Assembly: GCA_947632605.1 (NCBI GenBank) | Contig: CANRPX010000007.1 | Coordinates: 4,882-68,881, forward strand | Direction: 5' to 3' | Length of the DNA stretch: 64,000 nucleotides | From: an uncultured Clostridia bacterium | Lineage (GTDB): Bacteria; Bacillota; Clostridia; TANB77; CAG-508 | Shown: positions 7,956-56,605 of the stretch, one piece after another | Numbering within the stretch: position 1 is the stretch's first letter | Layout: every line of letters starts with the position of its first letter | Notes under the pieces: model-generated | The model's input: only the letters and a program-made list of their open reading frames with translations | The model's database searches: none | Told to the model about the DNA's origin: nothing | Position numbers and translations under genes: made by a program

Positions 7956-10013
7956 ATGAAAATCAAAAATTGTAAGAAAAAATTTGTTGGTGCAAGTGTT
8001 TTTCTTTTAGGTTTAATTTTAAGTGGTAATGTATTTGCTACTGACTTAAAATTAGAAACTACTGAAGAATATGAAGCTTGGAAGAATCTTTCACCAGAAG
8101 AGAAGGAAACTTCAATAATGCCACAAACTTTTTCAATTGAAATTCCAAAAGAGATTTTAGAAAAATATGAAACATCAAATGTGCCTGGTTTAATAGGTTC
8201 TTTATTTAGAAGTAGAGAATTTGATTTGAGAACAGTTTCTGCAAGTAGTTATGATTCAAAATTTAACTTAGCAGATAAATTGAATTTAAGAGTGGAAAAT
8301 CAGGGGATTACAAATGAATGTTGGGCATTTTCTACAATTAAATCTATGGAAACAAATATAGCATTAAAAACAGGAGAAAGAAATTTGAAAAACTTTTCTG
8401 AAAGACACATGGATTATTCATCTGTAAGTGATTTTATAGATGGAACAAATTCAAATGGATTGAACAGAAAAGCAGGTGATGGTGGACTTCCAATTATGGG
8501 GTTAGCATATTTAACAAATGGACAAGGTGCTGTATTAGAAGAAGATATGCCTTTTGAGGATAATAAAAATGAAATTTATTTAAAAGATTTGAAAAAAGAT
8601 GTAGATACAGTAGTTACAGATTACAAAACACTTCCAGTTTTAAAGAAAAGCTATACAAAAGATAGATATGGTAATACAACTTCTGTTACTTATTCAGATG
8701 GAAATGGAAAAATTTATACAGATAGTGAAGTAGATGCAATTAGAAAAATTATAAAAGATCATTTAATAAATGAAGGTGCAATAGCTACATTTAATGCTGG
8801 ATCAAAATTAGAATACTATAATGGAGAATCTATATTTTCATCAAATGCATACTATTGTAATGATGTAGCAACAATTAGAGATCATGCAGTTACAATTGTT
8901 GGATGGGATGATAATTATAAAAAAGAGAATTTTAAAGAAGGTAGAAGACCTTCAAAAGATGGGGCATATATAGTATTAAATTCTTATGGAGATGGAGTAT
9001 TTGAAAATGGATATATGTATGTTTCTTATGAAGATTTCTTTATTGAAAGTGAACTATACGGAATATCTAAAACATCTTCAGTAGATTATGATAATATATA
9101 TCAATATGATAATTTTGGTGGAGTATTACAATTAACTTCTTCAGATACAAATACTGGATATATTGGAACAGTATTTAGTAGAGAAAACGTAAAAAATGAA
9201 ATTATAAATCATGTTGGTATAACATTAGGAGATTATGTTGATGTAGAAATTTATTTAAATCCAAGAAATACAAGTATGAGAAAAGAAGATTTAATTTTAG
9301 TTAGTAAATCAAATTCTACTTTAGAACCAGGATATCATAGAATAGATATAACACCAACAAGATTAGAAGGAAGCGATTTTGCAATAGTAGTAAAACAAAC
9401 AGCAAAGTCTGGTAATGGTTTTTCTTTCCAAGTAGAAGCTAATGTTTCAGGAACACCATATAGCACAGTAAGATCTAATAATAAGAGTTATTTTTCTATT
9501 AATGGAGAAGAATGGGCTAATTTATCTAATATACAAGTACAAGGTGTTGATATGTCAAACACTGATGTTTGTATAAAAGGTTTCACAATTATTGAAGATA
9601 ATAGTAGTAAAGACAGCATTAAATCACTTGTATATAAAATTGATAATAAATATATAATGAATGTTTCACATGATACAACAAAATCTGAATTTTTGAAAAA
9701 TATAACAACAGATTTAGGAAAAAGTCTATATGATGAAAATAATAAAGAAATAATTAATGATTCTGATATAATCAAAACAGGTATGAAATTAAGATTATCT
9801 AATAATGAAGAATATACATTAATTGTAAAAGGTGATAGTAATTCAGATGGTCAAATTACAATACTAGATGTATCAAGACTTTCAGGATATTATGTAGGAA
9901 TTGAAAATAATTATTTAAATGAAAATGAGAAAAAAGCATTAGACCTTGATTTAGATGGAAAAGTCTCAATATTGGATTTATCACTATTAGCAGAAATATA
10001 TAATTCAATTTAG
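7956..10013 (+). CDS. Secreted papain-family (C1A) cysteine protease with a C-terminal type-I dockerin module
   Basis: It has a signal peptide. The catalytic Cys is in NQGITNECWAFS, His in DHAVTIVGWDD and Asn in LNSYGDGVFENGYMYV. The C-terminus carries two dockerin calcium-binding segments (DSNSDGQITILDVSRLSGYY and LDLDGKVSILDLSLLAEIY). Confidence 0.75.
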   Translation: MKIKNCKKKFVGASVFLLGLILSGNVFATDLKLETTEEYEAWKNLSPEEKETSIMPQTFSIEIPKEILEKYETSNVPGLIGSLFRSREFDLRTVSASSYDSKFNLADKLNLRVENQGITNECWAFSTIKSMETNIALKTGERNLKNFSERHMDYSSVSDFIDGTNSNGLNRKAGDGGLPIMGLAYLTNGQGAVLEEDMPFEDNKNEIYLKDLKKDVDTVVTDYKTLPVLKKSYTKDRYGNTTSVTYSDGNGKIYTDSEVDAIRKIIKDHLINEGAIATFNAGSKLEYYNGESIFSSNAYYCNDVATIRDHAVTIVGWDDNYKKENFKEGRRPSKDGAYIVLNSYGDGVFENGYMYVSYEDFFIESELYGISKTSSVDYDNIYQYDNFGGVLQLTSSDTNTGYIGTVFSRENVKNEIINHVGITLGDYVDVEIYLNPRNTSMRKEDLILVSKSNSTLEPGYHRIDITPTRLEGSDFAIVVKQTAKSGNGFSFQVEANVSGTPYSTVRSNNKSYFSINGEEWANLSNIQVQGVDMSNTDVCIKGFTIIEDNSSKDSIKSLVYKIDNKYIMNVSHDTTKSEFLKNITTDLGKSLYDENNKEIINDSDIIKTGMKLRLSNNEEYTLIVKGDSNSDGQITILDVSRLSGYYVGIENNYLNENEKKALDLDLDGKVSILDLSLLAEIYNSI

Positions 10014-19890: not shown

Positions 19891-20793
19891 ATGACGATAT
19901 ACTTAGATGTTGTATTTTTCGAGAACGTTATTTTAAATTTCATAATAATATTATCAACATCAATATTGAGCAAAACAGTAACTAATACAAAGAGAATTAT
20001 GATATCTAGCATAATTGGTGGCATATATGCAATTTTAAATTATATTGTTAATTTAAATTCATTTTTTAACATAGTAATTAAAATTATAATATCTTTTATT
20101 ATGATAATGATAGCATTTGGTAAGTACAGTGTAAAAAAAGTAATAAAAGAAGTAATATTTTTCTATTTAGTAACTTTTACTTTTGGAGGAATTGCTTTTA
20201 TGTTATTGTTTTTCATCAATCCAAATAATATTGTTATCGTAAAAAATCATTTTGTTGGTACTTATCCTATAAAAGTAGCTATACTATCTGGATTAGTAGG
20301 ATTTATTACAATTAGCATAGTATCAAAAATTATTAAAACTAAAATAAACAAAAAAATTACAATTTGTGAATTAGAAATATTTTATAACGGAAAAAATAAG
20401 AAAATAAAAACTATGCTAGATACAGGAAATTTACTTAAGGAACCTATTAGTAATGCAGATGTGGCAATTGTTGAAAAGGCAAGTTTAGATGACATTGTTT
20501 CAAAAAAATTGTTGCAAGATATGAAGTATATTTTGCAAGGTGAATGGATTGAAAATTCAAGTATTCATGATTATAAATTCAAACTTGTACCTTTTTCTTC
20601 ATTAGGAAATGAAAATGGATTATTAATAGCATTTAAACCAGATTATATAAAAATATATGGAGAAGAAGAACTTGTTAGAGATGATGTATTAATTGCAATA
20701 TATGATGGAAAATTATCAAGAAATAATATGTATACAAGTTTAATTGGTTTAGATATTTTAAATAATTCTAAAAGTATAAAAAATATTTCATAA
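19891..20793 (+). CDS. spoIIGA: Sporulation sigma-E processing peptidase SpoIIGA
   Basis: Polytopic membrane N-terminus. The C-terminal aspartic-protease domain has the DTG motif (MLDTGNLL). It lies immediately upstream of sigE. Confidence 0.8.
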   Translation: MTIYLDVVFFENVILNFIIILSTSILSKTVTNTKRIMISSIIGGIYAILNYIVNLNSFFNIVIKIIISFIMIMIAFGKYSVKKVIKEVIFFYLVTFTFGGIAFMLLFFINPNNIVIVKNHFVGTYPIKVAILSGLVGFITISIVSKIIKTKINKKITICELEIFYNGKNKKIKTMLDTGNLLKEPISNADVAIVEKASLDDIVSKKLLQDMKYILQGEWIENSSIHDYKFKLVPFSSLGNENGLLIAFKPDYIKIYGEEELVRDDVLIAIYDGKLSRNNMYTSLIGLDILNNSKSIKNIS

Positions 20794-20837: not shown

Positions 20838-21572
20838 TTGAATTTATTAAGTTTTTTTAAAAATAAAATAATAAAAATTTTTGGAAAATATTATTATAAA
20901 GATAATATATATAAATTTCCAATTTTCTATATAAAAGGTAATCAAACTTTACCACCACCATTAGATAGCATTGAAGAAGAAAAGCTTATTCAAAAATTGA
21001 TATTAAATGATAAAGATGCAAAACAAATTCTTGTTGAGAGAAACTTAAGGCTTGTAGTTTATATTGCAAAAAAATTTGAAAATACAGGAATAGATTTTGA
21101 AGATTTAATATCTATTGGTACAATAGGCCTAATGAAAGCAGTAAATACTTTTAATGTAGATAAAAATATAAAATTAGCAACTTATGCTTCTAGATGTATA
21201 GAAAATGAAATTTTAATGCAACTTAGAAGAAATACAAAAATTAAAAATGAAGTATCAATAGATGAACCATTAAATAAAGATGGAGATGGAAATGAACTTT
21301 TATTATCAGATGTTTTAGGAACAGACAATGATGTAACATCTAGAGCTATTGAAAATGAAGTTGATATGAAATTACTTAAAATTGCTATAAGTAAATTAGA
21401 TAGCAGAGAAAAATATATAATGCAACTTAGATTTGGAATTGATGGAGATGGAAAAGAAAAGACTCAAAAAGAAGTCGCAGATATGTTAGGCATTTCTCAA
21501 AGTTATATATCTAGACTTGAAAAGAAAATAATGAATAAAATGAAAAAAGAAATTATTAGTAAAACAGGATAA
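20838..21572 (+). CDS. sigE: RNA polymerase sporulation sigma factor SigE (pro-sigma-E, TTG start)
   Basis: The N-terminal pro-sequence is followed by region 2 ([11 protein letters not shown] ... [14 protein letters not shown]) and region 4 ([19 protein letters not shown]). Confidence 0.9.
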
Positions 21573-21597
21573 TTTTAGAAATAAGAAATTAGTTTTT

Positions 21598-21632
21598 GGC
21601 TAGAAACTTAAGAAAACTAGTTTCTTTTTTTG
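21598..21632 (+). terminator. Putative intrinsic terminator after sigE
   Basis: AGAAACT ... AGTTTCT hairpin including the palindrome AAACTAGTTT, then T7. Confidence 0.45.
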
Positions 21633-21720
21633 TTACAATTATATTAAAAACATTGTAATTGGAAATAATTAGATATAAAATTATTATAAAATGAGATAAT
21701 ACTATCAAATAGATATAAAA

Positions 21721-24576
21721 ATGGAGGTAGTTATTTTGGTTGGGAAAAAAGGAAAAAAAGATGAAGAACTTATCGTGGATGTTGAAGATTTTGAAAATTT
21801 TGGTAAGCTAGCAGATGATGATGAATATAAAGAAGGAGAAGTAGAAGAACCAAAAAAAATAGATAAAAAAGATTTAGAAGAAGTACCTGAAGAAGATGAT
21901 GACGAAATAATAGATGACGAAGAGGCAGATGAATATGAAGAAGTCGATGATGACGAATTTGAAGAAGTAGGCGAAGACGACGAAATAGTAGATGATGAAG
22001 AAGCAGATGAGTATGAAGAAGTAGATGACGATGAATTCGAAGAAGTAGGCGAAGATGACAAAATAGTAGATGATGAAGAAGCAGATGAGTATGAAGAAGT
22101 AGATGACGATGAATTCGAAGAAGTAGGCGAAGACGATGAGATAGTAGATGATGAAGAAGCAGAAGAATATGAAGAAGTAGATGACGATGACGAATTCGAA
22201 GAAGTAGGCGAAGACGACGAAATAGTAGATGACGAAGAAGCAGATGAGTATGAAGAAGTGGATGATGACGACGAATTCGAAGAAGTAGGCGAAGATGATG
22301 AAATAGTAGATGACAAAGAAGCAGATGAGTTTGAAGAAGTCGATGATGAAGATGAAATTGTAGATGATGAAGAACCAGAAGAATTCGAGGAAGTCGATGA
22401 TGAAGATGAAGTTGTAGATGATGAAGAACCAGAAGAATTCGAGGAAGTCGATGATGATGATGAAGTTGTAGATGATGAAGAACCAGAAGAATTCGAAGAA
22501 GTAGATGACGAGGATGAAGTAGAAGAAGACGAAGAACCAGAAGAGTTCGAAGAAGTCGATGATGAAGATGAAGTTGTAGATGATGAAGAACCAGAAGAAT
22601 TCGAAGAAGTCGATGATGAAGATGAAGTTGTAGAAGAGGAAGAACCAGAAGAATTTGAAGAAGTCGATGAAGAAGATGAAGTTGTAGATGATGAAGAACC
22701 AGAAGAGTTCGAAGAAGTCGATGATGAAGATGAAGTTGTAGATGATGAAGAACCAGAAGAATTCGAAGAAGTCGATGAAGAAGATGAAGTTATAGACGAT
22801 GAAGAACCAGAAGAGTTCGAAGAAGTCGATGAAGAAGATGAAGTTGTAGAAGACGAAAAACCAGAAGAGTCTGAAGAAGTAGATACTGAAGAATCAGAAG
22901 AAAATGAGGAAGCAGACGAAGAAGTTAAGGATGAGGATGCAGAAGAAGAAACTGATGAAGATTCTGAATTTGAAGAATCAGATGAAGAAGATAACGAAGA
23001 AGATGATGACGAAGATGATGAAGACGAAGATGAAGATGATGAGGAAAGTATTTATCCAGATGAATTAGTTGACTTAGAATTAGAATGTATATATATTGGT
23101 CTTCTATTCAATAATCCTAAAGCTATTTCTAGATTTTACTTTTTATTTGAAGATTGTAAGTTTTCTGATAGTGAGTTGTATAATTTATATAGAATAATTA
23201 TATTTAGAGATGGTGAAGCATACGCTCCAGCAAGTGCTAAGGATAAATTCCAATTACCAAGAGAAAATCCAAGAACTTATGATTTAAAATACAAAGTTAG
23301 AAAAATGGCAATTGCAAAAAATTATGACTTAGAAAAAGTTTATACAGACTTAAAAAAATTATTTATATTAAAGAAGAATTATTTAATAGCTCCTACATCA
23401 GCAATACAACAACAAATTCTTGATATACAAAATTATGATTTGTATGATAGTATGACTGTTGAAGAAGTTGAGAGTGCATTAGAGCAAATTACTGTTACAA
23501 CTGGATTGAGTAGAGCAATATTAAATGAAAATGCAACAAGTTTCTTATTAGCAGATGACAATGAATTAAGCAATGGTATATCATTACCATTCCCAACTTT
23601 AACAACCGTGTTTAAAGGTATTAGAAAAGGAGAAACAATGACTTATGCAATGCCTTCAAACTCTGGTAAAAGTAGGTTTACAATTGAACTTGCTTGCTAT
23701 ATAGCATTTATTCATAAGAAAAAAGTATTAGTTATATCAAACGAAATGTCTCAAGAGAAAATGAGATTATGTATGATAACTACAATTTTAAATAATCCAG
23801 AAATTCAAAAACTTCACAAACAAAATATTCGCAAAACAGAGGGAGAATTACTAGAATTAAAATTTAGACCAGATGAAAACAAAAAAGTAAAATGTGATGA
23901 AGAAGGATTTATCTTAAGAAAAGATGGAGAAAATATAGAAGAGTTTGTTAAAAGACTAGAAAAAAATTCTAAAGAATTTAGACAAACAATTGCAGCAACT
24001 GAATGGCTAAATACACAACTAAATAACTCAATCTACTTTATTCACATAACAGAACATTCAAATGATGATTTAAAGAAAATTATAATGAATTATTATTATA
24101 AAGAAGCAATAGAATATATTTTCTACGATACTTTAAAAGCAGATACAGAAAATATTGGTAACGGAAACGAGATTAAGAAAACTGCAACAATACTTTCAAA
24201 TTTAGCACAGAAATTTAAAATGTGGATTGGTTCATCAATGCAATTATTGGAAAGTAGTACATTACCAGTAAATTTAACTATTAATGATATGTCTGCTAGC
24301 AAAACAGTAAAAGAAGTATTAGATACTTTATGTTTAATAAAACAAATAAGTAGACAATCTTTATATAAATATGAATATGCAGATACTGATCAATTTGAAA
24401 ATTGTCATGATATTGAAGTACCAAAAGATACAGATGTTAGATTTTATGCTTGTGTTGTAGATAAGAACAGAGCTGGTGCAAAACCAACATTGTTATTTAG
24501 ATTAAACTTAGCTTATAATGAATGGGAAGAAATGGGTCATTTAAGATTAAAACAGTCTGAAATAGAAGAAGATTAG
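21721..24576 (+). CDS. Poly-acidic tandem-repeat protein fused to a divergent DnaB-family helicase domain (alternative start TTG 21736)
   Basis: Residues about 60-440 are more than 70% D/E in tandem repeats. Residues about 440-950 show a DnaB-like N-domain pattern (ELECIYIGLLFNNPKAISRFYFLFED), a Walker A (AMPSNSGKSRFTIELACYIA), the SNEMS motif, a Walker B (IFYDTL) and a C-terminal VVDKNRAGAKPTLLFRL resembling DnaB IIAKQRNGPTG. Confidence 0.55.
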   Translation: MEVVILVGKKGKKDEELIVDVEDFENFGKLADDDEYKEGEVEEPKKIDKKDLEEVPEEDDDEIIDDEEADEYEEVDDDEFEEVGEDDEIVDDEEADEYEEVDDDEFEEVGEDDKIVDDEEADEYEEVDDDEFEEVGEDDEIVDDEEAEEYEEVDDDDEFEEVGEDDEIVDDEEADEYEEVDDDDEFEEVGEDDEIVDDKEADEFEEVDDEDEIVDDEEPEEFEEVDDEDEVVDDEEPEEFEEVDDDDEVVDDEEPEEFEEVDDEDEVEEDEEPEEFEEVDDEDEVVDDEEPEEFEEVDDEDEVVEEEEPEEFEEVDEEDEVVDDEEPEEFEEVDDEDEVVDDEEPEEFEEVDEEDEVIDDEEPEEFEEVDEEDEVVEDEKPEESEEVDTEESEENEEADEEVKDEDAEEETDEDSEFEESDEEDNEEDDDEDDEDEDEDDEESIYPDELVDLELECIYIGLLFNNPKAISRFYFLFEDCKFSDSELYNLYRIIIFRDGEAYAPASAKDKFQLPRENPRTYDLKYKVRKMAIAKNYDLEKVYTDLKKLFILKKNYLIAPTSAIQQQILDIQNYDLYDSMTVEEVESALEQITVTTGLSRAILNENATSFLLADDNELSNGISLPFPTLTTVFKGIRKGETMTYAMPSNSGKSRFTIELACYIAFIHKKKVLVISNEMSQEKMRLCMITTILNNPEIQKLHKQNIRKTEGELLELKFRPDENKKVKCDEEGFILRKDGENIEEFVKRLEKNSKEFRQTIAATEWLNTQLNNSIYFIHITEHSNDDLKKIIMNYYYKEAIEYIFYDTLKADTENIGNGNEIKKTATILSNLAQKFKMWIGSSMQLLESSTLPVNLTINDMSASKTVKEVLDTLCLIKQISRQSLYKYEYADTDQFENCHDIEVPKDTDVRFYACVVDKNRAGAKPTLLFRLNLAYNEWEEMGHLRLKQSEIEED
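21895..22870 (+). repeat. In-frame coding tandem repeat array: about 5 copies of a 78-nt unit, then about 11 copies of a 54-nt unit
   Basis: Direct reading of near-identical units (gaaatagtagatgatgaagaagcagatgagtatgaagaagtagatgacgatgaattcgaagaagtaggcgaagacgac, then gaagaaccagaagaattcgaggaagtcgatgatgaagatgaagttgtagatgat). Confidence 0.9.
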
Positions 24577-24651
24577 GCTAAAAATAGTATAAAAAACCTT
24601 CTTTGTGGAAATAATGTAAATAACGTTATTTTCATAAAGGAGGTTTTTAAT

Positions 24652-25425
24652 TTGATTAATAGAGTAGAAATTGCAAATGTAAATACCTCTAAATTACAAG
24701 TTTTATCACAAGAAGAAACAAAAGAATTATTCAAAAAAATGCATGAAGGAGATAAAGATGCAAGAGAAAAATTAATAAATGGAAATTTAAGATTAGTTTT
24801 AAGTGTAATTCAGAGATTTTGTGGAAGAGGTGAAAATGCAGATGACCTTTTTCAAGTGGGATGTGTAGGATTAATAAAAGCAATAGATAATTTTGATACT
24901 AGTTTAGATATTCAACTTTCAACTTATGGTGTTCCAATGATAATTGGAGAAGTTAGAAGATATTTAAGAGATAATAATATGGTGAGAGTTAGCAGATCTG
25001 TAAGAGATTTAGCATATAAAGTATTACAAGAAAAAGAAAAACTTACTAGACAAAACGGAAAAGAACCAACTGTTGAAGAATTAGCAAAGGAATTACAAGT
25101 AGAAAAAGAAGAAATAGTTCTTAGTTTAGATGCAATACAAGATCCAGTATCATTACAAGAACCAGTTTATAATGATGGTGCAGATAATTTATCAATAATG
25201 GATCAAGTAAGTGATAAGAAAAATACAGATGAATTATGGGCTGAAAAAATAACAATGAATGAAGCATTAAAAAAATTAAATGATAAAGAAAGAATGATAA
25301 TAGATAAAAGATTTTTTATGGGAAGAACTCAAATGGAAGTAGCAGATGAAATAGGAATTTCACAAGCTCAAGTATCAAGACTAGAAAAAACAGCAATAGA
25401 TCATATAAGACGACTATATAAATAA
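24652..25425 (+). CDS. sigG: RNA polymerase sporulation sigma factor SigG (TTG start)
   Basis: Region 2.x reads LRLVLSVIQRF ... DLFQVGCVGLIKAIDNFD and region 4 reads QMEVADEIGISQAQVSRLE. RBS AAGGAGG. Its position after sigE is as expected. Confidence 0.9.
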   Translation: MINRVEIANVNTSKLQVLSQEETKELFKKMHEGDKDAREKLINGNLRLVLSVIQRFCGRGENADDLFQVGCVGLIKAIDNFDTSLDIQLSTYGVPMIIGEVRRYLRDNNMVRVSRSVRDLAYKVLQEKEKLTRQNGKEPTVEELAKELQVEKEEIVLSLDAIQDPVSLQEPVYNDGADNLSIMDQVSDKKNTDELWAEKITMNEALKKLNDKERMIIDKRFFMGRTQMEVADEIGISQAQVSRLEKTAIDHIRRLYK

Positions 25426-29974: not shown

Positions 29975-30592
29975 TTATGCAGAAGAATAAGCAATATCTT
30001 TCTTAAAGTATATGTTGAAGAATGACATATAATTACCACAAGAACATTTAATAGGGTCATAACCAAAAGATAATTCAATGGATTCACGCCATTTAGAAAG
30101 TTTCTTACGAATATTAATAATAGATTGTTTAACACGTTTAATAAGTTTGTCATGATGAGGGGACTTTTTAGCATAAATACCATAATAACGAATCATTTTA
30201 AATTGTTCATCAGGAATATGAATAATAAGTTTTTGAATAAATTCAAAAACAGGAATAGATTCAATAATTTTTTTATTATCTTCATGACGTTGATACCAAA
30301 AAGTAACATAAGAACCATCGTAATTAATGATACGAGATTGAGCCATAGAAGGTCTAGAAATATAGCGAATAATATAATTAACAACGTCATAAGAAGAAGA
30401 TAAATTAGGTTTAGCATAAACATAAAAACCGTTGTTTGTGAGCGGAATAAAGGAAGTTCTTAAAAGAACGAAAAGAAGACTTGCCAAGGACTTTTTCAAT
30501 ATTGTAAAGTAAGGTAGTTTGCCATTTTTTACGAAGCATAATATAAGGAAAATGATAAAAAGGACGCCAAGGGATAGAAGTACCAGAAGCAC
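29975..30592 (-). pseudogene. IS91-family transposase, C-terminal fragment (Y2 catalytic region)
   Basis: 205-aa ORF with RYYGIY (Y-x3-Y) and a conserved C-terminal CSCG. It continues the upstream fragment after a frame change. Confidence 0.6.
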
Positions 30593-31088
30593 CTTCAGAA
30601 ATAAGCATATGAATATGAGGATTCCATTTTAAATCACGACCGAAAGTATGAAGAGCACAGATGATACCAGGTTTAAAGTTTTGAGATTTATTCAAAGAGG
30701 AAAACCAGTCAAGAATAGTTTGAGCAGCAGATTTAAAAAGAAGATGAAGAAGAGAGCGATTTTTACGGAATAAGAAACGTAATTCAGCAGGAATAGTAAA
30801 AACGATATGTCTATGTTTACAATTAATTAATTTAGAAGATAGAGAAAGAGCACGAGCCTTTTGATATTTAGAGCCACAAGAGTTGCAGAAACGAGATTTA
30901 CAAGAAAAAGGAACGCACTTAAATTTTCCACAATGTTCACAAATATAAAGAGCATGACCAAGATTAGGATTTTGACAATTAATCATTTTAAGAACTTCTT
31001 TATTAACAACAGGTCTAACATTAGGGAAAGAGGTAATAAAATCAGACCAATTATCAGCCATGATTTGTTTAATAGTAAATTTAGACAT
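30411..31088 (-). pseudogene. IS91-family transposase, N-terminal fragment (Zn-finger + HUH), interrupted by a frameshift
   Basis: 225-aa ORF. It overlaps the C-terminal fragment ORF (29975-30592) in another frame, and an A6 run lies in the overlap. Confidence 0.6.
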
Positions 31089-32651: not shown

Positions 32652-34439
32652 ATGGTTCAATACACTGACGAATTAAAAGAAGAAATAAGATCAGCAAATG
32701 ATATCGTAGATGTCATATCTCAATATGTAAGCTTGAAAAGAAGTGGTAGAAATTTTTTCGGTTTATGTCCTTTTCATAAAGAAAAATCACCTTCTTTTTC
32801 TGTTTCTGCTGACAGACAATATTTTCACTGTTTTGGTTGTCATAAAGGTGGAGATGTCTTTACTTTTGTTAGTGAAATTGAAAAAGTATCTTTTAAAGAA
32901 GCATTAGAATTATTAGCTGAAAGAGCAAAAATCCAATTACCAGTATCAGAAAATCCTGAATTTAATAAAAAACAATATTTAAAAGATAGAATGTACAAAG
33001 TCAACAGTGAAGCAACAATCTTTTATCATGAAAGATTATATAAACCTTTAGCAAAAATAGCACAAGACTATGTAAAACAAAGAAAGTTAGATAATAATAC
33101 TTTAAAAGCTTTTAAAATTGGTTATTCAGGCGAATACAATGAGTTATATAAACACTTGAAATCTAAAAGTTTTAAAGATGAAGAAATATTAGCAACAGGT
33201 CTTGTAAATAAAAATGATAGAGGAGAATATATTGATCGTTTTAGAAAAAGACTTATGTTTCCAATATTAGATGTTAGTGGAAGAGTTATTGCTTTTGGTG
33301 GTAGAAAATTAGATAATAATGAAAAAACTGCTAAATATATCAATTCTAATGAAAATTTAGTATATTCTAAAAAGAAAAATTTATTTGCATTAAATTTAGC
33401 AAAACAATCTGATTCTAAAAATATTATTTTAGTCGAAGGATATATGGATGCTATTTCTTTGTATCAAAGAGGATTTAACAATGTTGTTGCTTCACTTGGA
33501 ACAGCCCTAACAGAAGAACAGGGAAGATTATTAAGAAGATATTGTGAGCAAGTAATATTGAGTTATGATTCAGATGGTGCAGGACAAGAAGCAATAATGA
33601 GAGGACTAACAATTTTAGAAGATCAAGGTTGTGATGCTAGAGTATTGCAGATGGATGGAGCAAAAGATCCAGATGAATATGTTATTAAATATGGTAGTGG
33701 AAGATTTAAAATGTTGGTTGATAATGCAATTTCGCTAGTAGAGTTCAAGATTAAAATGTTAAAAAACAAATATAATCTTGAAAATTCTAATGACAAGATA
33801 AGATTCTTGAAAGAAATTACTAAAGTTCTTTCAGATGTCGATAATAAAATAGAAAAAGAGATATACATCGACAAAATATCAAAACAATACAACATATCTA
33901 AAGAAGCAATTTATGCAGAAGTAAATAAAGCAACATATACTTCTAAAAAAGATGAAAAAGTACTTATAAAACCTAAAATAAAAAAAGAAGAAGTAGTAGA
34001 AATAAATCCTGCAATAATAAAAAGAGAAAATATGATTATTTATCTACTTATAAATTATTTTAGAGAATCTTATGAAAAAATAGTAACTAACATTTTTCTA
34101 GAAGATTTTAAATTAGAATCAAATAAATTATTGTTTGAAACAATTTTAAATTCACAAGCAGAAGAAAGCGACAAGATTTTACAGATTATTTCAAACATAG
34201 AAGATTCAGAAATACAGTCACATGTTAGTGAAATTTTAGTAACAGATTATGAGATTAATTCTGTTGATAAATGTATAGAAGATTTGGTAAATACTTATAA
34301 TAAAGAGAGATTAGCAAATAGAAAAATGGAAATTGTTCATATTTTAGATAATAAATCATCAGAATTATCAAAAGATGAAATATCTAAATTAGAACAAGAA
34401 TTAAGTGATATTATAGTTGAATTGGCTAAGAAAAAGTAG
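32652..34439 (+). CDS. dnaG: DNA primase
   Basis: The zinc ribbon reads [31 protein letters not shown]. The Toprim motif EGYMDAIS is present. It is followed by sigA as in the conserved dnaG-sigA operon. Confidence 0.9.
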
Positions 34440-34455
34440 GAGGGATTTAGAAAAG

Positions 34456-36093
34456 ATGAGAAAAAAAGAGATAATAGAAGAAGAAAAACCTACAACAAAG
34501 AAAAATATAAAAAAGTCAGTAGATAGCGATACTAAAAAAACTGCAAAATCTAAAAAAGAAGAGAAAAAAGTAGAAGAAAAAGTTAAAAAATCTACAAAAT
34601 CTAAAAAAGAAGAAGCAGTTGTAGAAAAACCAAAAAAAGTAGCAAAAGTAGAAAAAGAAGAAAAGAAAGAAGAAAATAAACCAAAAAAATCAGTAAAGGC
34701 AGAAAAAGAAGGGAAGAAAGAAGAAAGTAAATCTAAAAAAACAGTAAAAGCAGAAAAAGAAGAAAAGAAAGAAGAAAATAAATCTAAAAAAACAGCAAAG
34801 GCAGAAAAAGAAGAAAAGAAAGAAGAAAGTAAACCAAAAAAATCAGCAAAGGTAGAAGAAGAAAAGAAAGAAGAAAAAAAATCTAAAAAAGTAGCAAAAG
34901 AAGAAAAACCAGAAGAAGAAAGCAAATCTTCAAAAACTCAAAAAGCTGAAAAAGTAGAAAATAAAGAGCCTGAAGTTAAAGAAGAGAAGAATAATAAAAA
35001 ATCTGAAGATCCAGAAAAAGATAAAATTTTAAAAATTGTTAATGATGCTAAAGCAAAAGGAAATATCACTTATGGGGAATTAGCACTAGAGCTTGGTGAA
35101 GCTAATCCAGAACAAATTGATAAAGTTTTTGAAGCTTTTGAAGAAATGGGTGTTAATGTTCTAAAAGATGATGATGATTTATTAGAACCAGATCCAGAAG
35201 ATTTAGATGAAGTAGAAGATATAAAACTTGATGAATTAGATATAAATAATGCTATTGAAGGTGTTAGTGTTGATGACCCAGTAAGAATGTATTTAAGAGA
35301 AATTGGTAGAATACCATTACTTACTTTTGAAGAAGAATTAGAGCTTGCAGAACAAGTTTTAGAAGGAAATGAAGAAGCAAAACAAAAATTAGCTGAATCA
35401 AATTTAAGATTAGTTGTAAGTATAGCTAAAAAATATGTTGGAAGAGGAATGTTATTCTTAGATTTAATCCAAGAAGGAAATATGGGATTAATAAAAGCAG
35501 TAGAAAAATTCGACTATAAAAAAGGATATAAATTTAGTACTTATGCTACATGGTGGATTAGACAAGCTATTACAAGAGCAATTGCAGATCAAGCTAGAAC
35601 AATTAGAATTCCAGTTCACATGGTAGAAACAATAAATAAATTAATTCGTACTTCTAGACATTTACTTCAAATGTTAGGAAGAGAACCTTCTCCAGAAGAA
35701 ATTGCTGAAGAAATGGAAATACCAGTTGAAAAAGTAATGGAAATCCAAAAAATAGCACAAGATCCAGTTTCTTTGGAAACACCAATAGGAGAAGAAGATG
35801 ATAGTCATTTAGGAGATTTTATTCCTGATGATGAATCACCAGCACCACACGATTCAGCTGCATATACATTATTAAAAGAACAATTAGAAGAAGTTATGGC
35901 AACTTTAACACCAAGAGAAGCAAAAGTATTAAAATTGAGATTTGGACTAGAAGATGGAAAAGCTAGAACTCTAGAAGAAGTAGGAAAAGAGTTCCAAGTA
36001 ACTCGTGAAAGAATTAGACAAATTGAAGCAAAAGCATTAAGAAAATTAAGACATCCAAGTAGAAGTAAAAGATTGAAAGATTATATGACCTAA
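34456..36093 (+). CDS. sigA: Primary sigma factor RpoD/SigA with a Lys/Glu-rich repeat insertion of about 180 aa near the N-terminus
   Basis: Region 2 reads [11 protein letters not shown] ... [19 protein letters not shown] ... [17 protein letters not shown] and region 4 reads [19 protein letters not shown]. The start was chosen at the ATG 13 nt after an RBS GGAGGG (the ORF track begins at an upstream TTG inside dnaG). Confidence 0.9.
34640..34900 (+). repeat. In-frame tandem repeat of 51 nt (a 17-aa unit like [17 protein letters not shown]) in about 5 copies inside sigA
   Basis: Direct reading of the repeated units in DNA and protein. Confidence 0.8.
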
Positions 36094-50044: not shown

Positions 50045-51319
50045 ATGTTTTGTAGTGAATGTGGAGCAAAAAATCCAGATGGAGCATCTTTTTGCGATCA
50101 ATGTGGAGCTAAATTAGAAGCAACACAAACAGTAAAAAATGAACCAAAAAAAGAAGAAAAAGCTGAACCAAGAAAACAAATAACAATAACTAAAAAACAA
50201 AAAGCTTTAATAGTATTAGCTGTAGTAGTTGTAGTTGCATTATTTGTTGTATACCAATTTATATCATCACAAACTAGTCCTGCAAAGCTTGTAAGTAAGT
50301 ATATGGATGCTGTTCAAAGCAAAGATTACCATACTTTATATGAGCTAGCTGAATTTTCTGGTGATAATGTTTTTATTACAGAAGATGCTTTTTCTAAAGT
50401 ATTAGAAGAAAACTTAAAAAATCTTTCAATTCAAAATTACACAGTAGGAAAAAATATCAAATATGAGAATGCTGGATTGAAAGTAACAGTACCAGTTAAT
50501 ATTACTGCTACTGATACAACTACTTCTAGTACAAAAGAATTTACAATTGAATTATCAAAATTACCAAATAAAAAATTTGTATTTTTTGATAATTGGAAAT
50601 TAGAAAATATGTCTACTCTTTTAGGATATGATATCGTAACAGATTACAAAATAATTGTACCAAAAAGCACAAAAGTAACTTTTGCAGGAATAACTCTTGA
50701 CGATACATATTTAGATAAAGAAGAAAGTGACAAAAGTAAAGCAACCAATACATATAAAATACCACAAATGTTTAATACAGAAAAAGTTGATGGAGAATTT
50801 GAGGTTTTCGGAAATGTAAAAATAAAAAGAGAAATACCAATATCAACTTATAATAATACATATAGATTAACTATTTCTGAAGAAGATATAAACCTTGAAG
50901 AAGAAGAAAAAATGAAATCTGCTATTAAAGAAAATCTTAATACAGTTATGAATGCATTAATAGCAAAAAAATCTTTTGATGAAGTTCAAGGCAATTTTGC
51001 AGAAGGAGATGTAGATTATTCTTCTAGCACTAGAAAAGTATATGAAAATCAAATTAAATATATGGAAAGATTAAGTTATACAGTAAGTGATTTCAATATT
51101 AAAGATGTTGCAATCTCAAGAGTTAGTGTAGATTCATCAAATTTCAATATATCTGTAAGAATAGAAGTTAGCTATACATGGAAAGCTACTTCAACACAAA
51201 ATGGAACAACTAAAGATGCAGACGATACATCTTATGTAACTTATGATCTAGTTTATAAAGACGGAGCATATAAACCTACTCATTTATCAGAATTTCCATC
51301 TTTATATGTATGGATGTAA
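50045..51319 (+). CDS. N-terminal zinc-ribbon membrane protein, type A (single TM + extracytoplasmic domain), paralog 1
   Basis: Starts MFCSECGAKNPDGASFCDQCGAKL (CxxC ... CxxC). A TM follows at about aa 55-75. Confidence 0.6.
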   Translation: MFCSECGAKNPDGASFCDQCGAKLEATQTVKNEPKKEEKAEPRKQITITKKQKALIVLAVVVVVALFVVYQFISSQTSPAKLVSKYMDAVQSKDYHTLYELAEFSGDNVFITEDAFSKVLEENLKNLSIQNYTVGKNIKYENAGLKVTVPVNITATDTTTSSTKEFTIELSKLPNKKFVFFDNWKLENMSTLLGYDIVTDYKIIVPKSTKVTFAGITLDDTYLDKEESDKSKATNTYKIPQMFNTEKVDGEFEVFGNVKIKREIPISTYNNTYRLTISEEDINLEEEEKMKSAIKENLNTVMNALIAKKSFDEVQGNFAEGDVDYSSSTRKVYENQIKYMERLSYTVSDFNIKDVAISRVSVDSSNFNISVRIEVSYTWKATSTQNGTTKDADDTSYVTYDLVYKDGAYKPTHLSEFPSLYVWM

Positions 51320-53203: not shown

Positions 53204-54895
53204 ATGTTTTGTAGTGAATGCGGAGCAAAGAATCCTGATGATGCAGCTTTTTGTTCAGAATGTGGAAAAAAGTTAGAAAAACCACAAGAAAGTGCATCAG
53301 TTAGTGAAAATAATACAACTCAAAATGTGCAATATCAAAAAGTAGAAGAAGTGCAAAATGTTCAAAACGAGCAAAAAGTTTATACACAAAGTAATCAAAA
53401 TAAAAAAAGTCCTTTTTTAAAAGTAGTAATAGTAATTGTATTGCTAGCAATTTTAGGTGGAGCTATATACTTTGCTTATACAAAGTATTTTAAGGATGGA
53501 AACAATAGCTTTTTAAGTGGAACTACAACAAAAACAGAATGGGGAGATAAATACCTTGTATATTTAAATTCTGCAAAAGCTCAAACAGATAAAAAAGCAA
53601 GAGCGAATGAATATGGAATACCAGAAAATGCAGAAGAACTAAAAATAAAATTTGTTGAAGTTCCAGGATTAACAGATCCAATAATGGTTTTAAATTATGT
53701 TCTAGATGGAAAAGAATATGCATTGATTTATTATATAAATAAAGAAGGAAAAGTAAGTCTTGTTACTTACAATGAGGCAACAAATGTAGAATATTTATAT
53801 AATATAGAAGCAAAAACATATAGTTGGTACATTCATTCAACAAGTGCTGGAACACATAAATATACTTTATTAGAAAAAGCAATAACAGATTTATCAGTAT
53901 TAAATCAAGATACGAATACACAAAATGTAGATTCTACAAATACAACACCAACAACAACTGCAGAAGTAACAGTCGATTATGCATTTACAGAATCTGAAAT
54001 GAGTACAAAATATAATGACACATTTATAAAACCAGAAATAGAAAATTCAAAAGGTACAGACATAGATTTAGATTCTGAAGATGATTTAAAAAATACAGTA
54101 GATTCTGCAATAGATGATTATAAACCATCAGATGAATTATTAAAAGAAGAAGAGAAAAAAGAAGTAGAAGAAAAGGCTAAGGAGATAGAAGAAAAGCCTA
54201 AATATTCAAAAATAGATGAATCAAAAGATATTGTTTATACAGGTGCAACATATAATCATTATTATTTAAGTGCTGCATATCCTGTTATAAATATAAATAC
54301 AGATACTGTAAAAGCAATTAATTCTGAAATATATAAAGAGTATGGATTTCCAAACAATATTGGAAATTCCGATGATGCATATATGGATGCATACGGAGAA
54401 TATTTCTTTGAAACAGGTTTAATAGGATATAAATATTTTGTTAATGATAAAACATTATCTCTTATAGTATCAAGAAGTGGTAATGAATCTATATGGTCAG
54501 ATATTTATAATATAAATCTAAAAACAGGAGAAAAGGTCTCAAATTCTGAATTATTATCAATGAAAAATATAAATAATGATGAAATGCTTACAAAATGCAA
54601 AGAAATTGCTGTGAATGATTTTGATACGACTATAAACACAGAACCAGCTGGTTTACGTTTACAAGGATATAAAGAAAGTGAAATAGATGAATTTAGAAAT
54701 GATTTAATAAATGATCTTATGAATCAAACAAGATTATTTTTAGATGAAAATGGAAAGTTATGTCTTGTAACTGATTATCGACATGCTGGTGGTCAATCAA
54801 ATTGTATACAAACAATAATTATTCACATAGAAGAAAATTATAGATTAGAAAAATTAAATGATTCTAATATTAAAAATTATGCAGCAACAAATTAA
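53204..54895 (+). CDS. N-terminal zinc-ribbon membrane protein, type A, paralog 2
   Basis: Starts MFCSECGAKNPDDAAFCSECGKKLEKPQESASV. Single TM and a large ectodomain. Confidence 0.6.
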   Translation: MFCSECGAKNPDDAAFCSECGKKLEKPQESASVSENNTTQNVQYQKVEEVQNVQNEQKVYTQSNQNKKSPFLKVVIVIVLLAILGGAIYFAYTKYFKDGNNSFLSGTTTKTEWGDKYLVYLNSAKAQTDKKARANEYGIPENAEELKIKFVEVPGLTDPIMVLNYVLDGKEYALIYYINKEGKVSLVTYNEATNVEYLYNIEAKTYSWYIHSTSAGTHKYTLLEKAITDLSVLNQDTNTQNVDSTNTTPTTTAEVTVDYAFTESEMSTKYNDTFIKPEIENSKGTDIDLDSEDDLKNTVDSAIDDYKPSDELLKEEEKKEVEEKAKEIEEKPKYSKIDESKDIVYTGATYNHYYLSAAYPVININTDTVKAINSEIYKEYGFPNNIGNSDDAYMDAYGEYFFETGLIGYKYFVNDKTLSLIVSRSGNESIWSDIYNINLKTGEKVSNSELLSMKNINNDEMLTKCKEIAVNDFDTTINTEPAGLRLQGYKESEIDEFRNDLINDLMNQTRLFLDENGKLCLVTDYRHAGGQSNCIQTIIIHIEENYRLEKLNDSNIKNYAATN

Positions 54896-54910: not shown

Positions 54911-56605
54911 ATGTTTTGTAGCGAGTGTGGAGCAAAAAATCCTGATGATGCAGCTTTTTGTTCAGAATGTGGAAAGAAGTTAGAAAAGCCACAAGAAAGT
55001 GCATCAGTTACTGAAAATAATACAACTCAAAATGTGCAATACCAAAAAGTAGAAGAGGTGCAAAATGTTAAAAATGAACAAGAAAATGTAAGTAATAATC
55101 ATAAAAAAAGTTCTCAAAAAGTTGTAAAAGTAATTGTATTATTAGTACTTTTAGGAATAATTATATATTTTGCATATTCTAAATATTTTAAAGCAGAAAA
55201 TAATGATAATAGTAGTAGTAATAATAATGCTTCATCTTCTGAAGAAGTTACTGTTAAAACAGATTGGGGAAATAGATATTTTGTTATTTTAAAAAATTCA
55301 ATAGAAAAACCTCAAGATGGTTTTGGTATTCCTTCGAATGCAAAAAATGTAAAAATGAGATTTTTAAAAATTCCAACAATAAAATATCCAATAATGATTA
55401 TAAATTATGTAGCAGATGATATAGAACATTTACAAATATCTTTTATTGATTCAAATAACGAAACAGTAAGTTCAAATTTTAAAGAAAAAAAAGTAAATGT
55501 AGAATATCTATATAATTTAGAAAAAAAGAAATATGATTGGTATATTCATTGGCAACAAGATGATGGACATATATATGGATTAGTAACTGAATATCTTCAT
55601 AATGCATTAAAAGAAGGTGAAAATACAGATTCACAAAATGTAACAAATTCAGAAGCAGCTAATAATACTGTATTTGAAACAACAAGTTATTTTATTAAAA
55701 ATGAAGAATATGCTACTAGATATAATCAATTATTTACTGGACAAGAAACAAATAGTTCAGAGGAAGTAGATATAGATGTAAATGCAACAAAAGAAGAACT
55801 TAGAGATAAAATGAATTCAGCTATTGATTTATATCAATCAGAAAATGAACCTACTGAAAGTAGTAATACAGAAGGTACTAATGATGTAATTCAAGCAGGT
55901 GACTTCACTTTGCAATGTGGAGTTTATGAATTTAAAACTAGTGCATCTGATACATCTGATTATCTACCAACTTCTTATACTATAAATAAAGATGGAACAT
56001 TTTCATATAAAAAAGAATGGAATGATATAACTGGAGCAAAATATGTAGACACAGGAAGTGGTAAATATACAATAAGTTTATCAACTTACAATAAATCGAT
56101 AGGAATAATTTCATTCGATTTTGATAAATATAACAGTACAAATAGTCAATTAAATAATTATGATTTAAATAAATATGATGGTACATATTCAGTTTCAAGT
56201 AATAATAATTTTAATAATGAACAAGAAAATGGAGAATATTATTATAAAGGACCAGCAGAAGAAGACAATACATCACAAGCTACAAGTAATAAAATTTCTT
56301 CAGATGAAGCTGTAAAGATTGTAAATGAAAAAATATTAAATAAAGGAAATAAAAATAATACATCAAGTGATACAGATTTAAATGTTGTAGCAAGTTATGG
56401 TAATAAAATCATTAAAGATGAAGAGGGAACAGAATACTATGTTATAGGACTTTATGTCCAAAATGAAGTTACTACATCTTTTGTACAAATAGATTTTATA
56501 TCAACAGATGGTACGAAGTATAAAGAAGTTTATACACCTACTAATTATACAAATAATCAAGTCGTAACTAAATTCGATAAGAGCGGAAACATAGCAGATT
56601 TATAA
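54911..56605 (+). CDS. N-terminal zinc-ribbon membrane protein, type A, paralog 3
   Basis: The first roughly 55 aa are nearly identical to the previous gene. The ectodomain shares blocks (VEYLYN..K.Y.WYIH). Confidence 0.6.
   Translation: MFCSECGAKNPDDAAFCSECGKKLEKPQESASVTENNTTQNVQYQKVEEVQNVKNEQENVSNNHKKSSQKVVKVIVLLVLLGIIIYFAYSKYFKAENNDNSSSNNNASSSEEVTVKTDWGNRYFVILKNSIEKPQDGFGIPSNAKNVKMRFLKIPTIKYPIMIINYVADDIEHLQISFIDSNNETVSSNFKEKKVNVEYLYNLEKKKYDWYIHWQQDDGHIYGLVTEYLHNALKEGENTDSQNVTNSEAANNTVFETTSYFIKNEEYATRYNQLFTGQETNSSEEVDIDVNATKEELRDKMNSAIDLYQSENEPTESSNTEGTNDVIQAGDFTLQCGVYEFKTSASDTSDYLPTSYTINKDGTFSYKKEWNDITGAKYVDTGSGKYTISLSTYNKSIGIISFDFDKYNSTNSQLNNYDLNKYDGTYSVSSNNNFNNEQENGEYYYKGPAEEDNTSQATSNKISSDEAVKIVNEKILNKGNKNNTSSDTDLNVVASYGNKIIKDEEGTEYYVIGLYVQNEVTTSFVQIDFISTDGTKYKEVYTPTNYTNNQVVTKFDKSGNIADL

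Follow-up and report, generated by a model that had tools for sequence, protein, structure and literature searches.

A phage-type DnaB-family helicase with a hypervariable polyanionic N-terminal tail is fixed in a clade of uncultured gut Clostridia

In a stretch of 64,000 nucleotides from an uncultured Clostridia bacterium (assembly GCA_947632605.1, contig CANRPX010000007.1, positions 4,882 to 68,881; hereafter the window), the sporulation genes sigE and sigG are separated by a single gene, which we call X. Its product combines helicase motifs in the C-terminal part with several hundred residues that are mostly Asp and Glu in the N-terminal part. The locus therefore raises the question of what kind of helicase X is, where it came from and whether its place between two sporulation sigma factor genes bears on its function. 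The explanation that best accounts for the observations jointly, and which we consider probable, is that X is a DnaB-family helicase of phage ancestry that became fixed in gut Clostridia of low G+C content (GC), that it is transcribed as its own unit and that its tail is under selection for charge.

The open reading frame (ORF) of X spans 2.9 kb in a window with a GC of about 25%; since such a genome is rich in stop-like triplets, a frame of this length cannot be due to chance. Translation probably starts at TTG 21736, which would give a protein of 946 aa, because GGAGG (21723–21727, overlapped by the ATG at 21721) lies 8 nt 5' of this in-frame codon and because the gene callers set the starts of orthologs at the equivalent Leu codon. 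The GC of X is host-like except in the repeat tract. The parts of the gene that bear on helicase function are as follows.

21721–24576, + strand: ORF of X, 951 aa counted from the ATG at 21721
23056–23502, + strand: helical region resembling the DnaB N-terminal domain, aa 446–594 (TIGR00665, family profile, AlphaFold2, Foldseek)
23563–24573, + strand: RecA-like ATPase/helicase domain, aa 615–951 (Pfam DnaB_C, PHROG 19, AlphaFold2, Foldseek)
23647–23673, + strand: Walker A motif AMPSNSGKS, aa 643–651, with G649 and K650 invariant
23737–23751, + strand: motif H1a SNEMS, aa 673–677, with E675 invariant and aligned with the H1a Glu of E. coli DnaB
23752–24117, + strand: segment from H1a to Walker B, 128 aa, which holds an insertion of about 45 aa
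24118–24135, + strand: Walker B motif IFYDTL, aa 800–805, with D803 invariant
24460–24477, + strand: DKNRAG, aa 914–919, the arginine-finger region, with K915 and R917 invariant

Sequence models assign the C-terminal part of X to the DnaB family and place it at a considerable distance from the cellular enzymes. The Pfam DnaB_C model (PF03796) matched X with 29.1–31.6 bits against a gathering score of 27 (8e-7), over profile positions 1–93 only. The DnaB equivalog model TIGR00665 aligned its positions 6–271 with aa 452–714 of X and scored 29.2–31.2 bits (1e-7) against a cutoff of 385.25, and all PRK DnaB models remained at or below 24 bits against cutoffs of 525–898. PHROG 19, annotated as 'DnaB-like replicative helicase', covered the entire ATPase domain at 2.4e-25. 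A phmmer search of the PDB with the X core gave no match at E≤0.01, and the Pfam model of the DnaB N-terminal domain (PF00772) did not match X, while its relatives P0135 and P0155 matched weakly, below the gathering score. A profile built from 35 family sequences matched replicative DnaBs exclusively in the PDB (E=4e-10 to 8e-6), including those of Aquifex (4nmn, 3.8e-10), E. coli (6bbm) and G. stearothermophilus (2r6a), over the stretch from the N-terminal domain to motif H1a.

Structure prediction extends this assignment to the whole core. The AlphaFold2 model of the C-terminal 510 aa, computed from a 40-sequence alignment, has a mean predicted local distance difference test (pLDDT) score of 89.4 and a predicted template modelling (pTM) score of 0.73, and the pLDDT of its RecA-like domain is about 90. 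Residues 23–181 of the modelled core are helical (the N-terminal helical part being residues 23–164), and residues 283–309 form secondary structure in the zone of the insertion between H1a and Walker B. When the model was compared with the PDB by Foldseek, G. stearothermophilus DnaB was matched at E=2.5e-18, with about 500 columns aligned along the full-length protein; the DnaBs of Aquifex and E. coli, T4 gp41 and SPP1 G40P were also found, and the top matches were all DnaB-family proteins. Identity was 12–15% throughout these alignments, also to the solved cellular DnaBs, that of Geobacillus included. Against viral models, Foldseek did not distinguish phage from cellular DnaB, with E of about 1e-18 for both. 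As judged from the model, the C-terminal 510 aa thus show a complete DnaB architecture, consisting of an N-terminal helical domain, a linker and a RecA-like domain.

The catalytic positions are conserved along with the fold. G649/K650, E675, D803, Q841 (motif H3) and K915/R917 are invariant across the 40-sequence family alignment, down to 20% identity, and share alignment columns with the corresponding residues of E. coli DnaB. From these residues we conclude that X is a predicted catalytically competent DnaB-family helicase, and by homology it would form hexamers and move with 5'–3' polarity. X shares fold, architecture and catalytic positions with the cellular enzymes (E. coli and G. stearothermophilus DnaB, B. 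subtilis DnaC), but differs from them in an insertion in the RecA domain, an N-terminal tail of about 440 aa, an identity of only 12–15% and the lack of linkage to rplI; on the sequence comparisons, X is not an ordinary cellular DnaB. An earlier reading of this DNA, made from the letters and the ORF translations (the sequence-only reading), had described a 951-aa gene between sigE and sigG with DnaB N-domain-like and RecA-like features, had pointed to the motifs AMPSNSGKS, SNEMS and IFYDTL and to the KNRAG region, had predicted a DnaB_C match in Pfam and had called the protein far more divergent than a housekeeping DnaB. The ORF and both flanking genes are confirmed, the motifs are present with their key residues invariant, the profiles, the AlphaFold2 model and Foldseek bear out both domains, DnaB_C was matched above its gathering score, and the low TIGR00665 score together with the empty phmmer search of the PDB agrees with the claimed divergence.

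To place X among its relatives, we compared it with 1.84 billion representative proteins, of which 384 matched at E≤1e-3. These fall into two tiers. The first is the X family proper, with 55–89% identity to the core, and the second consists of full-length proteins of about 510–600 aa with 21–38% identity (E from 1e-75 to 1e-20). All four second-tier genes whose contexts were examined lie in phage replication modules, on contigs of 38–195 kb, and one of the proteins is labelled Caudoviricetes. The gene order in these modules is YorF-like, AAA_24, YorH-like, helicase, DnaG-like primase, DHH/RecJ-like exonuclease and PolIII-alpha, with frequent inteins, and YorF and Phage_SPbeta_YorH are among the Pfam families annotated there. 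We take this order to match the yorF...yorI-yorJ-yorK-yorL arrangement of phage SPbeta, in which YorI would be the helicase by position. The closest match in a named phage is gp100 of Geobacillus virus E3 (1e-24, 95% coverage), whose gene is placed in a helicase-primase-exonuclease-PolIII-alpha module like those of the second tier, and the second-tier protein P0349 connects to further phages, among them those of Bacillus subtilis, Lactococcus and Clostridium botulinum. A plasmid collection gave weak matches alone, with 20–24% identity over most of X.

Large gut phage contigs of up to about 190 kb (L034, L036, L039 and L041) carry SPbeta-like replication modules together with a phage sigma factor. 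Their PolIII-alpha and UvrD-like genes are split by inteins or LAGLIDADG endonucleases, and some of these contigs share a sample series (BRZ_) with metagenome-assembled genomes (MAGs) that bear X.

X and the SPbeta/E3-type phage helicases agree in domain order, invariant motifs and the match to PHROG 19, and the sequence affinity of X to the phage proteins exceeds its affinity to cellular DnaB. The segment from H1a to Walker B is 128 aa long in X and 119–137 aa in the second tier, as compared with 81 aa in E. coli DnaB and 89 aa in E3, so the insertion of about 45 aa is common to X and most second-tier proteins and is lacking in E. coli DnaB and Geobacillus E3. Unlike the phage helicases, X stands alone in the chromosome and branches from a long stem of its own, and it carries an N-terminal extension (acidic, or a helical module with a linker) in place of which the phage proteins have nothing or a peptide of about 35 aa. 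The X core and E. coli DnaB share 15% identity in a trimmed alignment. Neighbour-joining trees computed from Poisson distances recovered the X family as monophyletic, on a long stem, in 300/300 bootstrap replicates.

The direction of transfer has to be weighed against the opposite course, in which X is a vertically inherited, extremely diverged cellular DnaB and the SPbeta-like phages took their helicase from such bacteria. The root of the tree is unstable, and in 111/300 replicates the outgroup, E. coli DnaB, joins the stem of the X family, so that X may stand beside the phage clade as its sister and not inside it. This course would nevertheless leave the X core 12–15% identical to cellular DnaBs as compared with 21–38% to the phage helicases, and phmmer without any cellular DnaB match in the PDB. 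DnaG and other replication proteins of the window match their own families strongly, which argues against a general acceleration of protein evolution. Moreover, members of the phage clade infect Bacillus, Geobacillus, Lactococcus and Clostridium whereas the X family is one narrow clade, and Geobacillus E3, which has the same phage module, is without the insertion, as is E. coli DnaB. We therefore regard a host-to-phage transfer as unlikely. Because the phage clade is broad and the X family narrow, and in view of the pattern of the insertion, we favour a course in which an ancestor of these bacteria captured the helicase from a phage; the tree accommodates both a nested and a sister position of X. 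Among the three options named in the sequence-only reading (a sporulation-timed helicase or loader, a domesticated mobile-element replication protein, or the organism's only DnaB), domestication is the best fit, given relatives in phage modules and a solo chromosomal gene under purifying selection.

Domestication of phage replication genes has precedents among the helicase loaders, in the domestication of DnaC and DnaI, the phage-derived replacement of loaders in Vibrionaceae (PMC11087808) and the domestication of a lambda gene (PMC5509034). These cases show phage replication genes becoming fixed in a host, but they concern loaders, whereas X is a helicase. Our literature searches returned no report of the replacement of the helicase itself, nor of polyacidic extensions of DnaB-type proteins.

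How firmly X belongs to its host can be read from its distribution. A scan with one genome per species yielded 33 X loci, one per genome, all in MAGs of uncultured gut Clostridia from human, rabbit, mouse and other hosts. One of these genomes (L007) falls in genus UMGS1663; its order, TANB77, comprises uncultured bacteria whose genomes are reduced (PMC11680825). The clade of the window includes 'Candidatus Scatovivens'. In the window's clade the genes are ordered ftsA-ftsZ-spoIIGA-sigE-X-sigG-ylmC...M23-M50...rpsF-ssb-rpsR. This order is kept in L001–L003 and in all sampled genomes whose SigG reaches 86% identity, among them 'Candidatus Scatovivens faecipullorum' GCA_018715625.1; the SigG search yielded exclusively relatives at or above this identity, every one of them with X between sigE and sigG. 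In 30 more distant species, whose X cores are 55–61% identical, X lies far from sigE and sigG in a partly conserved neighbourhood (addA ... rqcH-like(-) - X - peroxiredoxin - fba - smpB(-)). At none of the 33 loci is X accompanied by the phage replication partners (primase, RecJ-like exonuclease, PolIII-alpha), and neither there nor in the window does it adjoin rplI, downstream of which dnaB typically lies in Firmicutes. The X core evolves by purifying selection, with a ratio of non-synonymous to synonymous substitution rates (dN/dS) of 0.10–0.15 at a dS of 0.8–1.0 against three congeners. The defence-system models of PADLOC left X unmatched. Annotation differs between sources, X being a 'hypothetical protein' at NCBI and a 'replicative DNA helicase' at the Joint Genome Institute (JGI). 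These data show that X is a solo, single-copy gene fixed in the chromosome among housekeeping genes.

A currently mobile element, such as a prophage or an integrative and conjugative element (ICE) inserted between sigE and sigG, is therefore a highly improbable carrier of X. It would suit the phage-type ancestry of the gene, and the IMG/VR collection of viral contigs contains 416 matches to the family profile; among the best 80 of these 416, on which our analysis is based, four contigs gave family-level matches. In these contigs, however, X stands at the contig edge beside an integrase/ImmA/XRE or a lysis module, and we rejected them as evidence of phage carriage, since the matches represent flanking host DNA into which prophage predictions overshot. 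The window holds no other phage genes, integrase or repeats flanking X, the GC outside the repeat tract is host-like, and the locus is identical across a genus-level clade.

Prophage or ICE modules stand directly beside X orthologs in L004–L006 (8000–13500), L044 (1990–9650) and L046 (770–6160). They contain an integrase, ImmA/XRE, a replisome-organizer-like protein, a DnaB-N-like gene and lysis genes. It is because such modules are integrated beside X that IMG/VR lists host X genes as viral.

The most conspicuous feature of X in the window's clade is its N-terminal extension, which comprises the following elements.

21721–21840, + strand: Lys-rich N-terminal segment (MEVVILVGKKGKKDEEL...), 5' of the acidic tract
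21841–23049, + strand: polyacidic tail, presumably disordered, aa 41–443, about 70% Asp/Glu with interspersed Phe, Tyr, Val and Pro
21901–22349, + strand: tandem array 1, a unit of 78 bp (26 aa) repeated 5.7 times with 88% matches
22273–22892, + strand: tandem array 2, a unit of 54 bp (18 aa, EFEEVDDEDEVVDDEEPE) repeated 11.5 times with 89% matches

Asp and Glu make up 70.7% of aa 50–435, the net charge of aa 1–435 is -276, and no other ORF of the window has such a tract. The sequence-only reading had given more than 70% Asp/Glu, which holds, and a length of about 380 aa, where we find about 400 (aa 41–443). A Ser-rich ORF of 203 aa on the opposite strand (21705–22316) was considered as a gene and rejected as a mirror artefact of the GAA/GAT acidic repeats.

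Comparison of orthologs reveals that the composition of the tail is kept while its sequence and length change. In the close clade (core at least 72% identical) every full-length member has an acidic tract, of 46–392 aa and 43–74% Asp/Glu, and in most of them a Lys-rich, KKRKK-like start precedes it. Tail length varies even between near-identical cores, and one cluster member totals 1075 aa. In a contig of the same species (L123, 98–99% DNA identity) the core is identical at 510/511 positions and the tail is longer by 26 aa, corresponding to a single 78-bp unit; three further assemblies of this species (in the set L123–L126) break inside the repeats, and short-read MAGs systematically truncate X at this point. 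The repeat units are specific to lineages, with EFEEVDDEDEVVDDEEPE in the window, DFELPMDEMDDLEDLEE in P0121, DEDDEEYEEV in L003 and EYLEYDENMEYDE in P0111, and because they differ between lineages the acidic tail must have been built repeatedly and independently. Thus it seems to be charge, and not sequence or length, that is maintained. The tail could grow and shrink through slippage or unequal recombination of the 54- and 78-bp repeats.

In the distant orthologs (the first 60 or so codons of L004–L033) the N-terminus is instead a helical module of about 50 aa (KLYELLxxIPVTxxNxxxIxEIKxxLxxGxYxxALxKLxxL), without a match in Pfam, followed by a charged linker of 20–220 aa. The window's clade lacks this module and has the Lys-rich segment and acidic repeats in its place. 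At the N-terminus of the nearest phage proteins there is no more than an acidic peptide of about 35 aa, and on this comparison an N-terminal extension is a hallmark of the chromosomal X family.

As to what such a tail might do, a disordered polyanion, present six times per ring, could act electrostatically at the N-terminal collar, which in DnaB is the primase-binding face. It might serve as an auto-inhibitor resembling single-stranded DNA (ssDNA), provide an entropic shield or tether basic proteins of the replisome. Arguing by analogy, we hold an electrostatic mechanism to be the most likely hypothesis. The acidic C-terminal tail of T7 gp4, that of T7 gp2.5 and the tips of SSB bind basic patches of partner proteins or compete with ssDNA, and like the X tail they are rich in Asp and Glu, contain aromatic residues and belong to proteins of DNA replication. 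They are 10–30 aa long, C-terminal and end in a conserved aromatic residue, whereas in X the tail lies at the N-terminus, spans 46 to more than 500 aa, is repetitive and is polymorphic in length, and we treat the analogy as a lead. The proposal that the tail is a DNA mimic is likewise a hypothesis, in that DNA-mimic proteins of the Ocr/ArdA type share with it high negative charge only, the X tail being of low complexity and repetitive.

The sigma-A gene of the window (34417–36093) also encodes a Lys/Glu-rich N-terminal extension, of about 190 aa, with tandem repeats of 51/102/153 bp at 34534–34961. Its annotated TTG start overlaps the end of dnaG, and the true start is uncertain. The arrays in the X tail and in sigma-A are the sole strong tandem repeats in the 64 kb.

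We next consider the position of X between sigE and sigG, where the following genes and signals are relevant.

19891–20793: spoIIGA (TIGR02854, 3.6e-59)
20838–21572, + strand: sigE, the upstream neighbour (NF006158, 364 bits against a cutoff of 339)
21576–21632, + strand: terminator-like hairpin and T-run right after the sigE stop codon (free energy, dG, of -14.9 kcal/mol; z-score -1.95)
21633–21700, + strand: putative promoter region of X, with consensus matches, conserved in L001 and L003
24587–24651, + strand: sigG leader, with GTATA (24587–24591), a spacing of 15 and GGAAATAAT (24607–24615) in the 5' arm of a hairpin
24652–25425, + strand: sigG, the downstream neighbour (NF006071, 418 bits against a cutoff of 372)

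A PRC-barrel gene follows sigG on the opposite strand. The putative promoter region begins with a perfect inverted repeat, TTACAAT-N12-ATTGTAA (21633–21658), which occurs once in the window (0.03 expected) and is conserved in the genus; its right arm contains a -35-like TTGTAA that is followed, after 17 nt, by TAAAAT (21676–21681), and a TG-extended -10-like element, TGAGATAAT, lies further downstream at 21692–21700. Upstream of many distant orthologs stand near-consensus sigma-A promoters, such as TTGACA-17-TATAAT in L004 and L006, and no sigma-E/F/G/K-like motif was found upstream of X. The inverted repeat could be an operator overlapping the -35 element, and it matches no recognised regulator motif. 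As an operator of X throughout the family it was rejected, as among 28 distant orthologs solely L019 has it, with an N8 spacing.

Downstream of X, the 75-nt spacer to sigG has 86% column identity and its arrangement is kept in L001–L003. The sequence GTATA-15-GGAAATAAT fits what we take to be the B. subtilis sigma-F consensus. The hairpin in which it is embedded (24592–24648, 26 bp) has a dG of -31.4 kcal/mol (z-score -8.3), and its 3' arm contains the sigG ribosome-binding site, followed by a T-run. Put together, these elements suggest that X would form a transcription unit by itself, driven by a sigma-A-type promoter, and that the hairpin after sigE would insulate it upstream. Read-through from X into sigG would be terminated, or the sigG ribosome-binding site masked, by the second hairpin, while transcription from the sigma-F-type promoter inside that hairpin would give an RNA without the 5' arm, from which sigG could be translated. 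The scheme resembles what is known of read-through from spoIIG into sigG in B. subtilis. The hairpin and internal promoter would thus allow a vegetatively expressed gene to sit directly upstream of sigG. The promoter and terminator assignments around X are leads only.

These observations bear on a further explanation, offered in the sequence-only reading, by which X is a sporulation-specific helicase or loader that is co-regulated with sigE and sigG and acts, for example, on the forespore or mother-cell chromosome. The same-strand position between sigE and sigG, kept in all sampled genomes with a SigG at least 86% identical, speaks for it; but this linkage is confined to one genus-level clade, and in the 30 more distant species the ortholog stands in an unrelated neighbourhood away from both genes. 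The terminator-like hairpin between sigE and X, the sigma-A-like elements upstream of X with no sigma-E/F/G/K-like motif seen, and the sigma-F-like promoter that sigG has of its own, with a hairpin that would block read-through from X, argue against it as well. A sporulation role is therefore very unlikely, and the sigE-X-sigG location looks like a clade-specific rearrangement with no functional link. The sequence-only reading had named, as an observation that would count against its view, the presence of this gene at the sigE-sigG site across the genus as a known sporulation protein; the gene is indeed there genus-wide, but nowhere is it annotated as such.

Does X, as a phage-type helicase fixed in the chromosome, drive the replication forks of these bacteria? 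X is a candidate for the chromosomal replicative helicase of these reduced genomes, with a prospect that we place close to even or just short of it. It would work with the canonical DnaG encoded 8 kb downstream, at 32652–34439. What makes us lean towards a fork helicase is that the genomes are reduced, the gene is single-copy, the motifs are intact, the promoters are of the sigma-A type and the long stem appears adaptive. No canonical dnaB, rplI or dnaI is present in the 64-kb window, and a tblastn search with E. coli DnaB of 444 kb of clade DNA (the window and another 380 kb, which is less than 1% of each genome) found nothing beyond X. The sequence-only reading had held that the usual dnaB site, after rpsR, is occupied by an insertion sequence (IS) in this window; there is a remnant of an IS91-type transposase at that place, but no sign that dnaB ever occupied it. 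More tentatively, an order-level clade consisting of TANB77 and its relatives may have dropped DnaB and run its forks with an SPbeta-type phage helicase that was adapted through its N-terminal extension. In such a case the extension would couple the foreign helicase to host initiation or loading, for instance through self-inhibition and release at oriC or through recruitment of DnaA, DnaG or SSB, possibly replacing a dedicated loader.

That X is an accessory second helicase beside a canonical rplI-linked dnaB, serving for example in replication restart, in recombination or in the control or exclusion of SPbeta-like phages, is a minority reading in our judgement, albeit a substantial one. Phage-type helicases normally coexist with the DnaB of the host, and B. 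subtilis 168 has dnaC and the SPbeta gene yorI together. The primase, exonuclease and polymerase that accompany the helicase in phage modules are absent beside X, and prophages repeatedly adjoin it. An accessory role sits less well with a gene that occurs as a single copy in 33 or more species of a clade whose genomes are described as reduced (PMC11680825), that evolves under purifying selection and keeps every catalytic residue, and that frequently has strong sigma-A-type promoters. Nor did X show a defence-system signature or a conserved functional partner nearby.

Several points weigh against the explanation preferred here, that X is a phage-derived helicase fixed in these bacteria as its own transcription unit with a charge-selected tail and, possibly, the main helicase. 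Besides the unstable root of the tree, hexamer formation, ATPase activity and polarity of X are deduced from its homologs. Slippage of the repeats could have produced the tail as a by-product that is tolerated and, because sigma-A also has a charged repeat extension, there may be a genome-wide propensity to tolerate or generate such extensions. The hairpin after sigE barely exceeds its shuffled controls, and the promoter scan was at the background level of AT-rich DNA, with 46 sites as compared with 40.3 in shuffled sequences. As the dnaB search covered a small share of each genome, the part of the explanation that concerns the main helicase is put forward as a proposal.

The remainder of the window contains addB, alr, topB, murA, ftsAZ, sporulation genes, rpsF-ssb-rpsR, dut, carD and dnaG, as well as sigA, aspS, comEC, clpB and htrA. 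The IS91/Y2-type transposase remnant after rpsF-ssb-rpsR (29975–31088, - strand) is frameshifted into two overlapping ORFs, and the same element stands at the identical place in the same-species contig L124. Three paralogous proteins with an N-terminal zinc-ribbon (50045–51319, 53204–54895 and 54911–56605) are clustered with YibE/F-like and Yip1-like membrane proteins, and none of them gave an NCBIfam match at E≤1e-10; the proposal that the ORFs at 47.7–56.6 kb represent a TANB77 pilus cluster was not supported on checking. A fusion of a papain-family cysteine protease with a lectin-like domain and a type I dockerin is encoded at 7956–10013.

What is new here is a phage-type DnaB-family helicase that is fixed in a bacterial clade and carries a hypervariable polyanionic N-terminal tail. 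On the practical side, the repeats of X break short-read assemblies and annotation pipelines disagree on its name. TANB77 is of clinical interest as a marker of the response to immunotherapy (PMC11680825), and a clade-specific essential enzyme, should X prove to be one, would be a useful marker or target. Six polyanionic tails of about -276 each, polymorphic within a species, amount to a natural experiment on how disordered acidic regions regulate DNA enzymes. DnaB is, to our knowledge, regarded as the universal bacterial replicative helicase. If X is the sole helicase of its kind in these bacteria, a core enzyme of the replisome would have undergone xenologous displacement. Such a displacement would in turn raise the matter of loading at oriC, and of how the host DnaG and polymerase are coupled to a ring helicase of foreign origin.

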